Counted from the stretch's first letter, positions 38,289 to 41,794 are shown. The stretch: 64,000 bases of DNA from an uncultured Acidobacteriota bacterium (GCA_963724555.1 CAVRVE010000028.1:145026-209025); one strand, 5' to 3'. The notes: a model not told the origin generated them from the sequence alone. Made by a program: numbers and translations.

Positions 38289-38359
38289 CAATAACACCGA
38301 GTTCAGCGGCGAGGCGCCATCCCTGCGCCAGCCTCGTCCGCTGCAACTCGTCGTTAGGC
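38289..38359 (-). repeat. attC site 3 (distal)
   Basis: Minus-strand reading: GCCTAAC-GACGAGTTGCAGCGGACGAGG-loop-CCTCGCCGCTGAACTCGGT-GTTATTG. R'' is a perfect RYYYAAC. The arms pair with two unpaired bases in the R''-side arm. The site lies 29 nt 3' of the NTF2-like ORF. Confidence 0.7.
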
Positions 38360-38387
38360 GCCGCTCACTCTACACACGAAGTGGGGC

Positions 38388-38873
38388 CTAGGGCTTCACC
38401 GGGCCGTGTATCTTCTCAGCTGCGCCGGGAGGCAGTGGCTGGATCAACACGTTGTGGTAGTCAGCAATCCACCACTTCCCGCTGCTCTTCGTCACGATGA
38501 GAACGGGAACGTACTGTCTCAACGGAATGATGCTCTGGCCATCGTAGTCGATTGTGTTAGCAATGTCCCAGTCACAGTGGACCGCCGCGACGCCGGGCGC
38601 GTAGAACCTGATGCGCGTAGCCGTCACCGTCAACGTTGGTCCGGTGCTTCGGTAGGACGCAACTCGTTCCGGAACGAGTAGGTCAAGGAATACTTGAGGG
38701 ATTCTCGAAGAGGAAACGGGCTGCTGCCGGCTGGGCCTCAACAGGGCTCGAAGAAGCACAGGACGGTCATCGAACCTGTTGTGAAGTGATCGAAGAGTAC
38801 ATAATGGTAGTGGAAGATGTAATAAGGTGAGAAGAACAGAGGAGATGATTTTATATACGCGGAGTACTTCCAC
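38388..38873 (-). CDS. secreted NTF2-like (SnoaL/DUF4440-type) protein, integron cassette ORF
   Basis: 161-aa ORF. Hydrophobic N-terminus IISSVLLTLLHLPLPLC. C-terminal half TVTATRIRFYAPGVAAVHCDWDI...VPVLIVTKSSGKWWIADYHN matches the cone-shaped NTF2-like fold pattern. Lower G+C than the host genes. Confidence 0.6.
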   Translation of the reverse strand: MEVLRVYKIISSVLLTLLHLPLPLCTLRSLHNRFDDRPVLLRALLRPSRQQPVSSSRIPQVFLDLLVPERVASYRSTGPTLTVTATRIRFYAPGVAAVHCDWDIANTIDYDGQSIIPLRQYVPVLIVTKSSGKWWIADYHNVLIQPLPPGAAEKIHGPVKP

Positions 38874-39072
38874 TCACGAATCGCGGAGGACGCTAGCTCC
38901 TCGAACTGAGGGAGGCATCTGACACGTGATTTCAGCGCACCAGACCAGACACGAGCGACGCGTCATCCGGTATTGAGAGATCGAGAGCCTCGTGAAGCAG
39001 ATGCAGGCAAATGCGCTCGAGGGGCGGTGATCTTGCTCAGAGGAACGACGGCCATTGAGCTCGCTTCGATCC

Positions 39073-39258
39073 CTAGGACTGCTGACTGCGCATTGCCGCG
39101 TCTACGGCGCTTCTTTCCGGAAGCCGCATTAGCCGAACAAGCTTCTTGGCTTTGTCTCCAGCGTCCAACTCTTCCGCAGGTTGCTTGGAGTCGCATGCGA
39201 CGCACATCGGCGCGAGCATCAGCGAGAGCGCGCCGAGCCAAGCGAGTCGTCTAGCCAC
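39073..39258 (-). CDS. small hypothetical lipoprotein-like cassette ORF
   Basis: 61-aa ORF with GTG start, MARRLAWLGALSLMLAPMCVACDSKQPAEE (signal plus Cys). It overlaps an alternative 54-aa ORF (39219..39383), so only one of the two may be real. Confidence 0.3.
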   Translation of the reverse strand: MARRLAWLGALSLMLAPMCVACDSKQPAEELDAGDKAKKLVRLMRLPERSAVDAAMRSQQS

Positions 39259-39391
39259 GCCGGTCCACAGGTCTCGAAGAAGGACAGAACGCTGACTACT
39301 CCTCGAGAAGGATCTTCGAAGAGAGGGATCAGGCTGCCTTCGAGCTCATCGATGTAGGAGAACGGCTCCTCAAGAACCATCATCGAAGAGG

Positions 39392-39463
39392 GTCGAACAC
39401 TGGGGATAAGCTGCGAAGCTCCGAAGTTAGCCGGGCTTCGTCTGCTTCATCCCCTTGTTCGAC
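39392..39463 (-). repeat. attC site 2
   Basis: Plus-strand reading: GTCGAAC-ACTGGGGATAAGCTGCGAAGC-tccgaagttagccgg-GCTTCGTCTGCTTCATCCCCTT-GTTCGAC. The arms are almost identical to attC site 1 and the loop differs. Confidence 0.8.
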
Positions 39464-39713
39464 CGCCTCGCCTTCGGGGAGCGACGCGTCTGCGCGAGCG
39501 CCTCGGTACCGCGGCGACGACGGCCCGCAGCTGCGTGTTGACGGCCTTCGAGTTCGGGAAGGCAGCCGCTACATCGGGCTCCAGGACGACTGCGACGGTG
39601 CGGCCCTTGAGCTGCGCTGCGTAGGGATTCGCCTTCGCCTTGGAGTAGTCGAACGAGTACTCGGACCGGAGGTCGTCCGAGGCCCTAGGAACTGCCTTGC
39701 TGGCTTTCTTCAT
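39447..39713 (-). CDS. putative antitoxin partner of BrnT (BrnA/CopG-like)
   Basis: 88-aa [57 protein letters not shown] is a pattern I associate with small antitoxins encoded next to DUF497 toxins. The ORF ends inside attC site 2 and overlaps brnT by 29 nt. Confidence 0.6.
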
Positions 39714-39981
39714 AATCTCGACGCTCGCGCCGGGTGACCTTCCGGGCGCTGATCAAGCGAATCTTACCCTGCCGGTCGGTGAACGCCACGAGCAATAGGC
39801 GAACCTGCGCCGAATGACCGATCAGAATCTCGCGACGCTCGGACTCCGAATGGTCAGGATCGGGGAGAACCTTTGCCAGAGGGTCTTGAAACACGGTGAC
39901 CGCCTCCTCGAACGACACGCCGTGCGTCTTGGCGTTGGCAGCGGCCTTGGCCGGATCCCACTCGAAGGTCGGAGCATCCAT
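39685..39981 (-). CDS. brnT: BrnT-family (DUF497) toxin
   Basis: [52 protein letters not shown]...[19 protein letters not shown] matches the DUF497 consensus. Confidence 0.85.
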
Positions 39982-40034
39982 GAGCAGGGCGTCAGCCTAG
40001 CAGCACGGCCTGCCCGGTGGGGTCCTCTCAGTCG

Positions 40035-40111
40035 GTCGAACACCGGGGATAAGCTGCGAAGCTCCGACGCGTCTTGCACCGGGCTTCGTCTGCTTCATCC
40101 CCTTGTTCGAC
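40035..40111 (-). repeat. attC site 1 (proximal)
   Basis: Plus-strand reading: GTCGAAC-ACCGGGGATAAGCTGCGAAGC-tccgacgcgtcttgcaccgg-GCTTCGTCTGCTTCATCCCCTT-GTTCGAC. Confidence 0.8.
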
Positions 40112-40567
40112 GGCGCTCGGTGAACCTCGACTTCCGCGCACAGTCGCAAGTCGCTCTCGTCGCGCGTGAGGCAGACTGCGTCCATGCTATCCGTCATCGG
40201 CATGAAAGAGTACTAAGGCTCAACGATTCGCATACATCACGCTATGGCCCCTGAGTCATGCTTGGCTTGTCTAGCAAGTCGATCGGGCAGCGCTCCGCGC
40301 GCAGAGCACCGCCGCCGAGCTCTGAGCGCTCGATCTGCGCCGACGGCCCGAGAGCGACCTGCGCGCGTCAGCAGCGACGCCGGTCTTTGGCGAACTGCCA
40401 ACTTCGTGTCCCGTCTGCCACGGCCGTGGTCCGACTCGCTCTGTCCGCGCTACGGCACCAGGAGCGCGCGTCGCCGTCCAGGCTGAGCGTACCGATTGCA
40501 GCGACCTTTGTGTTGTACAACTCGCGAGCCTCGCCTGGCAGGCGTTGATGCTTCATCGCTATTGTCG

Positions 40568-40730
40568 GTCGAACATATAAGTAGGCCGACCGGCCTAGAT
40601 CGGCCACGCGGTCGGCCTAAGCACGATGGGCACTGGGTCGCACTATATGGACCAACGTGCTGAGCGTCAATGGTTTCAAGCCAGTCGATGACGCTCGCGC
40701 TGCTGGCATGGGCCGACCGGCCTAACCGGC
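40568..40730 (-). other. candidate attI region
   Basis: A single GTTCGAC core (minus strand, 40574-40568) is identical to the attC R' boxes but has no partner R''. It is flanked by three copies of TAGGCCG(A/G)(C/T)CGGCC (40582-40597, 40607-40620 inverted, 40711-40726). It lies 30-190 nt 3' of intI. Confidence 0.35.
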
Positions 40731-40755
40731 TTGGCATTCTCAGCCACTCACTAGC

Positions 40756-41794
40756 TCACAGGCGGTCGGCTGGGCTCTGGACCCCGCGACCGCCGCGGTT
40801 CAGGACGTGGGTGTAGATCATCGTAGTGCTCACGTCGCTTGTGGCCCAGCAACTCCTGGACCGTTCGAATGTCGTAGCCGTCGCGCAGCAGCTCGGTCGC
40901 GAAGCAATGACGCAACGTGTGCGGCGTGGCTGGCTTGCTGAGGCCGGCGAAGCGCACCGCCTCGGCCACCGCCTTCTGGACGACGGTCTCGTGTAAGTGA
41001 TGCCTGTGGCGGACGCCGGTCTGACGGTCGGTGAAATGGGAGGACGCCGGGAAGACGTATTGCCAGGCCCACTGTCTGTCGGCGTTCGGGTACTTGCGGG
41101 CCAGGGCGGCCGGCAGGGGTGCGCGACCCAGGCCCTGGCGCAGGTCGTTCTCGTGGAGCTCGCCTACCTTCTGGAGATGGGCGAGTAGCTGCTGCTTGCA
41201 GCAGGCGGGCAGCGTCGTGACGCGGTCCTTTTGTCCCTTGCCGTCCCGCACGGTGATCTCGTTGCGCTCGAAGTCGATGTCCTTGACACGCATGTGCAGG
41301 CACTCGAGCAGCCGTAGCCCGCTGCCGTACAAGAGTGTGCACACGAGCAACACGACGCCGTCGAGGTGGGCCAGGAGTTGTTTCACCTCGCCGCGGGTCA
41401 GGACGACTGGCACCCGGCCCGGCCGCTTGGCGCGCACGACGCCTTCGAGCAGGCCAATGTCACGCTCCAGGACCTGCTTATACAGGAAGACCAGGGCGCT
41501 CAGGGCCTGGGTCTGTGTCGAGGCGCTGACCCGCTCCTTCACCGCAAGGTGCGACAGGAAGGCGTTGAGTTCTGGCTTGCCCATCTCGGCAGGGTGCCGA
41601 ACCTTGTGGAAGAAGATGTAGCGCCGGATCCAGTGCACGTAAGCCTGTTCGGTTCGCGGGCTGTAGTGGCGCGTTCGGATTGCCTCACGAACGCGGTCTA
41701 GAAGCTTGGGCTTCGCCGGAGGCTGCCGAGCGGGCTGGCAGTGCCCTGCTTGCAGCAGAGCGGCAACAGGGCCGCCAATGGGATCGATGGTCAT
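40756..41794 (-). CDS. intI: integron integrase IntI; one frame break near the 3' end
   Basis: ORF 40751..41914 trimmed to the ATG at 41792-41794 (AGGGAGG RBS). Colinear with IntI1: [59 protein letters not shown]. It carries the IntI-specific insertion [21 protein letters not shown]. Deleting one base near 40838 restores [31 protein letters not shown], with the stop at 40756-40758. Confidence 0.9.

Follow-up and report, generated by a model that had tools for sequence, protein, structure and literature searches.

An inverted-integrase layout has been described for Treponema and others, and the papers concerned cite the "inverted integrase group" of Boucher et al. 2007 (PMC3575428, PMC3607928, PMC4889954, PMC13323075), a group reported to be paraphyletic (PMC4889954). 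Integrons and attC models for Acidobacteria are also already in the literature (PMC8352920). We analysed a stretch of 64,000 nucleotides from an uncultured Acidobacteriota bacterium (GCA_963724555.1, CAVRVE010000028.1:145026-209025), called the window in the following, and found that it very probably (we estimate about 0.9) carries a complete but small chromosomal integron of this inverted type in a Vicinamibacteria-like Acidobacteriota genome. Read along the minus strand, the element would consist of a leader, the integrase gene intI, an attI region with a candidate cassette promoter (Pc), and two cassettes with near-identical attC hairpins at their ends.

The likeness to the Treponema denticola-type integrons is one of layout: intI shares its strand with the attC top strand and has the array on its 3' side. 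The window differs from them in its host, an acidobacterium, and in the conserved candidate promoter between the intI stop and attI. Class 1 integrons have a recombinase of the same family and attC sites of the same architecture as those of the window, even in the AAGC..G[A]CG core and the extrahelical positions, but intI1 is divergent from its cassettes and has Pc inside it, and class 1 integrons are carried on Tn402/Tn21-type transposons with resistance genes, whereas the window element has neither a transposon nor a resistance gene. The Vibrio cholerae superintegron is likewise chromosomal, with homogeneous attC sites, toxin-antitoxin cassettes of which the window would have a putative one, and an integrase (VchIntIA) that aligns over the full length with that of the window; the differences are the tiny array, the inverted orientation and the lack of fixation at the locus within the species. 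Because three relatives with 96-98.5% identity have an empty site, this is not a classical sedentary integron, and it is also set apart from mobile integrons (classes 1-5), since there is no transposase and the opu and leuB genes flank it directly. The inverted layout was already known, and it is the absence from three near-identical relatives that is the exception to the ordinary.

Integrase, attC sites and orientation

The features of the contiguous integron are listed below with window coordinates. R1 is the attC covariance model described further on.

41795-41907, minus strand: conserved leader of about 110 nt upstream of the intI ATG (alignment A3)
40756-41794, minus strand: intI, integron integrase (TIGR02249, with PF13495 and PF00589 matches)
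40568-40755, minus strand: attI region, conserved up to TAGGCCGGTCGGCCTACTTATATG/TTCGAC
40642-40670, minus strand: candidate cassette promoter Pc, TTGACG-17-TATAGT, aimed into the array from its place between the intI stop and attI crossover
40041-40573, minus strand: cassette 1, 533 bp, from the attI G/TT to the G of the R' box of attC A
40035-40111, minus strand: attC A, R'' GTCGAAC and R' GTTCGAC, then CGAC (R1 76.9 bits, E 1e-17)
39398-40040, minus strand: cassette 2, 643 bp, brnT and an overlapping downstream open reading frame (ORF)
39685-39981, minus strand: brnT toxin gene (PF04365 BrnT_toxin, E 1.3e-27)
39447-39713, minus strand: partner ORF of 88 aa, overlapping brnT on its downstream side, with coding-like GC at third codon positions (GC3)
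39392-39463, minus strand: attC B (R1 79.4 bits, E 3e-18)

An earlier note on this DNA had taken the ORF at 40756-41794 for an integron integrase, and the profile searches agreed. All four of the elements that it listed recur in the sequence where it put them or close by, well beyond what chance would give. With one base removed (see below), the 345-aa protein scored 467.9 bits against TIGR02249, whose cutoff is 265, and covered model positions 1-315 of 315, while the XerC and XerD profiles gave 132-150 bits, far under their own cutoffs. The protein aligned end to end with VchIntIA (PDB 2A3V, E 4e-88), and the insertion peculiar to IntI proteins, which the note had also pointed out, was present and aligned to the VchIntIA segment LPTALKEKYPNAPYEFRWHYLFPS. 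Identity to IntI1 was 52.7%. Database matches ran into the thousands, the closest with 80-94% identity, mostly labelled integron integrase and from soil-type metagenomes; the nearest named homologs were integrases of Phycisphaerae, Planctomycetia and Acidobacteria metagenome-assembled genomes (MAGs), with 66-73% identity.

TIGR02249 and R1, the latter with a class 1 positive control, served as stand-ins for the intI_Cterm and attC models of IntegronFinder. R1 was built from 15 attC sites of three related integron loci, L002-L004, and from none of the window (alignment A1); the source sites came from a hairpin scan that yielded repeated AAC...GTT palindromes after the small genes 3' of intI. 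The consensus fold of R1 has 23 pairs, 9 of them with compensatory changes, and its AAC/GTT ends are invariant. When R1 was run on the 64-kb window with all filters off, it gave three strong matches only, all of them on the intI strand, and the next best match had 16.5 bits. Two are attC A and attC B, and the third, attC 3, is at 38288-38359 on the minus strand (R'' GCCTAAC, R' GTTATTG; 58.8 bits, E 7e-13). All three palindromes of the earlier note were thus matched as attC sites (58.8-79.4 bits), though its further reading of attC 3 as the end of a contiguous cassette failed, as set out below. On the plus strand attC A and attC B scored 26-28 bits, and attC 3 was matched on the minus strand only. 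Single-hairpin folds gave z scores of -5.2 to -5.3 for attC A, -6.1 to -6.8 for attC B and -5.1 to -6.1 for attC 3. As had been noticed before, attC A and attC B have different loops on arms that are 87-97% identical.

The minus-strand attC reads GTCGAAC-A-A-GGGGAT[G]AAGCAG[A]CGAAGC. In this top strand, which is the minus strand of the window, the AAC arm has two extrahelical bases separated by 6 bp. According to PMC5027507, the attC top strand has its extrahelical bases on the 5'-AAC-3' arm, the stem that parts the first of them from the last is 6 bp, and the far base is a T on the bottom strand. This rule is followed by the folds in the window: both unpaired bases belong to the AAC arm with 6 bp between them, and the second, an A, gives T on the bottom strand. 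The first is a C on the bottom strand, which differs from the G of the usual attC. In relatives with this attC family, NGAC follows the R' box in 24 of 27 sites, so that cassettes start with TTCGRC-NGAC. In the window it follows attI (40564-40567), attC A (40031-40034) and attC 3 (38284-38287), and not attC B. This NGAC extension lies outside the classical GTTRRRY definition.

For the orientation, R1 was run on four plasmid class 1 integrons, where it found the attC sites of aadA2 (44.7 bits) and aadA1 (37.8 bits) and further ones after qacL, cmlA1, estX and a HAD-family hydrolase gene. Every match was on the strand opposite intI1, so the sense strand of R1 is the canonical attC top strand. 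In the window the attC sites share the strand of intI, and the array follows it on the 3' side. The earlier note's proposal of an inverted rather than a divergent layout therefore stands, with the class 1 control opposite and seven other integrons alike. These seven have IntI proteins 55-89% identical to that of the window: 80-89% in the metagenomic L002-L004, 68-72% in the likewise metagenomic L087-L089 and 55% on the 1.1-Mb megaplasmid of a cultured Gemmatimonadota strain, Gemmatirosa kalamazoonensis KBS708 (plasmid 1; L095, NZ_CP007129.1, 847836-866789), whose inverted integron has at least 14 attC sites by R1. L002-L004 agree with the window in layout, attC family, leader, attI and candidate promoter, and their intI is followed downstream, on its own strand, by arrays of small genes. 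The fetched stretches of related arrays contain 5-16 attC sites, with L089 having only 3, weakly scoring. The window cassettes and the arrays of L002-L004 have nothing but attC sequence in common, and no cassette of the window recurs in Gemmatirosa kalamazoonensis or L087-L089 either; the genomic contexts differ and insertion sequences (IS) are often present. Cassette content is thus wholly different between related integrons, in line with the variability that the note had expected. In other genomes of 72-75% GC, the related integrons likewise form low-GC islands of a similar kind.

Several observations on the relatives may be added. IS elements were located within the arrays of L002 (14844-15884), L004 (14535-15704), L087 (9565-10745) and L088 (9444-17215), and the types include IS110, IS481/rve and several DDE_Tnp_1 copies. 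The array of L088 is heavily disrupted compared with L087, the two loci being otherwise identical. On plasmid pB of the cyanobacterium Kovacikia minuta (L094), with an IntI 60% identical to that of the window, weak attC matches were found at 2974-3062 and 6738-6823, and the layout appears to be canonical divergent, which fits the reported paraphyly of the inverted group.

attI, cassettes and the proposed mechanism

About 190 bp 3' of intI is common to the window and L002-L004 (alignment A2) and ends with TAGGCCGGTCGGCCTACTTAnnTG/TTCGRCnGAC. At this end of the four-integron attI conservation, CCTACTTAnnTG/TTCGRCnGAC, the sequences beyond are unrelated. The break falls at GTTCGRC, the expected attI signature, and for this reason we infer that the attI crossover lies between 40574 (G) and 40573 (T), written here as G/TT. 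The region also has a weak covariance-model match at 40568-40631, and GGCCGACCGGCCTA is repeated twice in it (40584-40597 and 40711-40724, family D17); this repeat may be an IntI binding element. The candidate Pc is the sole sigma-70-like site in 38100-42100, with 10 of 12 positions matched, and both of its hexamers are kept in L002, L003 and L004.

On the other side of intI, the conservation of the leader among the window and three other integrons begins at GGACCTCATCGGGCAC and continues to the intI ATG. A block GGACCYnnnCGGGCAC ... GCCGGCGCTCTCCCCAGGCA is kept in all four integrons, which have unrelated contexts; the copies in the relatives are at about 9895-10000 in L002, 9887-10000 in L003 and 9874-10000 in L004. 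Judged from this alignment, the leader is the left edge of the conserved platform, at about 41907, and it may hold the intI promoter or a regulatory region or operator. No covariation was seen when RNAalifold was run on the four copies (term +0.94, one compensatory pair), and the leader was dropped as a candidate RNA element.

In cassette 1 the best coding-like signal, judged from GC by codon position, was a short ORF starting at 40203. Cassette 2 resembles a BrnT/BrnA type II toxin-antitoxin (TA) system in its PF04365 toxin and its small overlapping downstream ORF, the difference being that the partner in the window has no BrnA or CopG match; by its position only, the 88-aa ORF is a putative antitoxin. 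Exact-sequence look-ups did not record BrnT, or the 61-aa ORF mentioned below, on other contigs.

The R' box of one site is complementary to the R'' box of the next for attI and attC A and for attC A and attC B, but not for attC B and attC 3, where the R'' of attC 3 mismatches the TTCGAC that attC B leaves. What follows attC B is spacer-derived and is not NGAC. attC B is probably the last site of the contiguous array, and only two cassettes are contiguous with attI. The DNA beyond attC B, towards the opu gene, contains the following features:

38642-39391, no strand assigned: non-cassette DNA, spacer remnants around about 600 bp of 54-58% GC
38164-38641: detached array fragment, 478 bp, adjoining the opu stop codon, with the solo attC 3 and a truncated gene
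38388-38633, minus strand: 5'-truncated fragment of a DUF4440/SgcJ-type gene (TIGR02246, positions 57-127 of 128)

No attC was found by R1 in 38642-39391, and its ORFs of 54 and 61 aa had no family matches in Pfam, NCBIfam, PADLOC and PDB. The 478-bp fragment has 128 bp with the CGAC family signature at their start, then attC 3, then the DUF4440/SgcJ-type gene, which aligns to residues 58-135 of a 135-aa homolog (P0121) with 63% identity. As both ends of the fragment are away from any G/TT crossover, it was not made by IntI. A "cassette 3", a single 1.1-kb cassette from 39397 to 38295, was rejected: it would contain ancestral spacer pieces and a 5'-truncated gene, no NGAC follows attC B, and the R''/R' boxes are out of phase. 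The earlier note had placed every cassette ORF on the minus strand with an attC 3' of each; this is only partly right, since the BrnT cassette fits it, cassette 1 has no convincing ORF, and the gene before attC 3 is truncated and detached.

By inference from established integron biology, such an element would work as follows. IntI would bind double-stranded attI and the folded attC bottom strand (the plus strand of the window), in which the two extrahelical bases, 6 bp apart, would be on the arm opposite AAC. Strand exchange at G/TT would bring circular cassettes in at attI, and attC x attC recombination would take them out. The cassettes would be transcribed from the TTGACG-17-TATAGT promoter downstream of intI, and read-through from intI may add to this because all genes are co-directional. 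A stabilising effect on the array would come from the BrnT toxin cassette. The known workings of integrons are unchanged by these findings. They give a well-dissected example of a minority layout in Acidobacteriota, an abundant soil phylum whose integrons come mostly from automated surveys. The attI boundary, the candidate promoter between intI and attI, the leader, the C extrahelical base and NGAC may be useful for annotation of, and experiments on, inverted integrons. Genomes that are at least 96% identical either have or lack the element at this core-gene spacer, which shows that such chromosomal integrons are not necessarily fixed in a species.

The island between opu and leuB

The integron is part of a low-GC island, and the earlier note was right that it is wedged between an ABC transporter operon and leuB. 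The further features of the locus are:

38164-42001: island, 3.8 kb, GC 54-66%, between an opu-type ABC transporter gene and leuB
36656-38163: fused opu permease/substrate-binding gene
left flank: ABC transporter ATPase, followed by the fused BPD_transp_1/OpuAC permease and binding protein (Pfam, from the orthologue in L001)
41908-42001, no strand assigned: 94 bp of 72% GC without assignment, from the platform edge to the leuB stop
42002-43072, minus strand: leuB, followed by leuD and leuC
opu-leuB spacer: 38642-39392 in the window, 3255-3363 in L001, 9072-9233 in L005 and 1948-2081 in L085

The composition scan showed GC falling from 0.72-0.76 in the flanks to 0.54-0.66 across 38200-41900 (72-75% for the chromosome), so the interval is indeed richer in AT than its neighbours, and the gap from the intI ATG to the leuB stop was measured as 207 nt, close to the 200 nt given before. 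LeuB is 99% identical to that of the uncultured Acidobacteriota MAG MFD00962.bin.2.101 and 65-67% identical to those of Vicinamibacteria MAGs, from which the host is taken to be an acidobacterium near Vicinamibacteria. The 94-bp segment at 41908-42001 had no counterpart in the empty-site relatives or in the other integrons compared.

The earlier note had proposed comparing synteny around opu and leuB in related genomes. Three conspecifics were found without the island, with a bare spacer between opu and leuB: 109 bp in L001 (96-97.5% nucleotide identity to the window), 162 bp in L005 (96.6-97.5%) and 134 bp in L085 (97.8-98.5%). Neither intI nor attC was found at opu-leuB in these three. Local alignments showed that remnants of the spacer are present within the island and colinear with the spacers of all three relatives. 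The remnant at 38642-38699 is 94% identical to the L001 spacer, and the motif CTACTCCTCAAGAnCCATCTTCGAAGAG is present twice, at 39296-39328 and, adjoining attC B, at 39366-39392. Because this spacer motif adjoins attC B and the leader edge is at about 41907, the contiguous integron is 39392-41907. Between the remnants, 38700-39295 (600 bp, 54-58% GC) had no relative in the data fetched. The spacer itself is hypervariable: each of these genomes, although at least 96% identical, retains a different subset of short blocks, and one 30-nt block is duplicated in the window, 67 bp apart.

The island is strain-specific and composite, and it is not one clean insertion. Neither a target-site duplication nor inverted repeats were found at 38164 and 42001. 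A simple insertion was rejected, as there is no target-site duplication and the spacer was replaced and not interrupted. A "mega-cassette" model in which IntI moves the whole integron was not supported either, as five other loci had no upstream counterpart of an attC or R box. Import by homologous recombination from a distant donor was rejected as well, since a sliding identity profile showed no clear rise of divergence in leuB or opu beside the island. By default, we take the island to have arrived by allelic replacement, through homologous recombination within the species. Separately, in the 94 bp between leuB and the leader, an R''-like GACGAAC and an R'-like GTTCGGC occur 11 nt apart at 41994-41970 on the minus strand; the pair has no covariance-model match and no counterpart at the other loci, and is probably due to chance.

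It is unlikely, though worth keeping in view, that the whole platform (leader, intI, attI and cassettes) has recently been mobile between chromosomal intergenic sites without a transposon, in Acidobacteriota and allied soil phyla. We keep this open because platforms 80-94% identical in protein occur in at least four unrelated contexts with sharp conserved edges, and because the copy is present in one strain, absent from three conspecifics and inserted piecewise, leaving spacer remnants and a detached attC fragment. The piecewise insertion could come from IntI events at secondary attG-like sites instead of simple allelic replacement.

The frameshift, competing explanations and minor observations

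Every integron-defining feature open to test here was found, the catalytic frame and the use of Pc apart. The minus strand at 40837-40840 reads GGCCAC-AAGC-GAC, where L002-L004 have CAC-AGC/AAT/CAG-GAC. The earlier note had located an extra base near 40838 whose removal restores the catalytic tyrosine; we mapped it to 40837-40840, and removal of one base there gives the full-length IntI with its stop at 40756 and, in the alignment to VchIntIA, with every catalytic motif. Compared with L001, L005 and L085, the window also has private 1-nt insertions at 37510/11 and 38120, which split the fused opu permease/binding-protein gene (36656-38163) into three frames, whether through an error of assembly or through recent inactivation of the transporter. 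L005, a GTDB representative MAG, was seen to have private 1-nt insertions of its own inside leuC, aligned to window positions 44253 and 44468, which suggests roughly one indel error per 1-2 kb in such MAGs. Because both the window assembly and a sister MAG have private 1-nt insertions in conserved genes, the intI frameshift cannot be read as pseudogenisation, and the odds between an artefact and a real pseudogene are roughly even.

Several points weigh against a complete integron. As assembled, the last ~28 intI codons, including the catalytic tyrosine, are out of frame, and with a frameshift ahead of that residue the element may lack activity in cis. With two contiguous cassettes, the array is tiny against the 5-16 attC sites in the fetched related stretches. 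Cassette 1 had no recognisable gene in Pfam, NCBIfam, PADLOC and PDB searches, and the 88-aa ORF had no family or PDB match, BrnA and CopG profiles included. The candidate Pc was named from its consensus match. No mechanism of arrival was found: the island lacks a transposase and a target-site duplication, and the leader has no recombination site upstream of it.

That the integron is intact and potentially active, the frameshift being an assembly (long-read indel) error, has in our judgement an even chance. The private insertions breaking the conserved opu gene, and those of L005 in leuC, agree with this, as do the position of the extra base in an otherwise well-conserved codon, the downstream frame kept to its normal stop, the completeness of the catalytic motifs once repaired and the intact attC hairpins, attI and candidate promoter; it has to contend, though, with an extra base outside any long homopolymer and with decay elsewhere, namely the truncated gene, the detached attC and the tiny array. 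The same signs of decay, with the tyrosine lost as assembled and a 5'-truncated cassette gene and solo attC lying apart from an array of two, are what a decaying relic would show, one with a genuine frameshift and a dead IntI, whose cassettes would stay frozen except for any action of another IntI in trans. intI pseudogenes beside cassette clusters have been reported in bacterial genomes (PMC4889954). We give the relic a substantial chance, somewhat below even, as the lesion is single, the motifs have no further stops or substitutions, comparable indels occur in conserved genes of the same assembly, and attC A and attC B are still almost identical and fully structured.

Two other explanations would remove the integron from this genome or altogether. 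A foreign integron spliced into the contig by chimeric assembly or binning would account for 54-66% GC between flanks of 72-75% and for the absence from three near-identical genomes, but such a splice would not give pieces of the species' own opu-leuB spacer, colinear, inside the island; both flanks are moreover seamless at 96-98% identity, and low-GC islands with related integrons exist in other 72-75% GC genomes, which makes this very improbable. Least probable, and in our view close to negligible, is an ordinary XerC/D-like recombinase beside unrelated REP-like palindromes. The tyrosine recombinase fold is common to both and the XerC and XerD profiles do match weakly, but they stay under their cutoffs while TIGR02249 is far exceeded, and the IntI-specific insertion is present. 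The palindromes occur nowhere else in 64 kb, their model cross-matches class 1 attC sites, and the arrays of the relatives lie solely 3' of intI.

Two minor results concern the remainder of the window. With Rfam at gathering thresholds on the whole 64 kb, a tRNA-Leu was the sole match, Rfam being without an attC family. A further small segment that varies between strains precedes a deoxyhypusine-synthase-like gene on its upstream side, where L005 has about 23 bp (13276-13298) in place of about 200 bp in the window (33922-34124).

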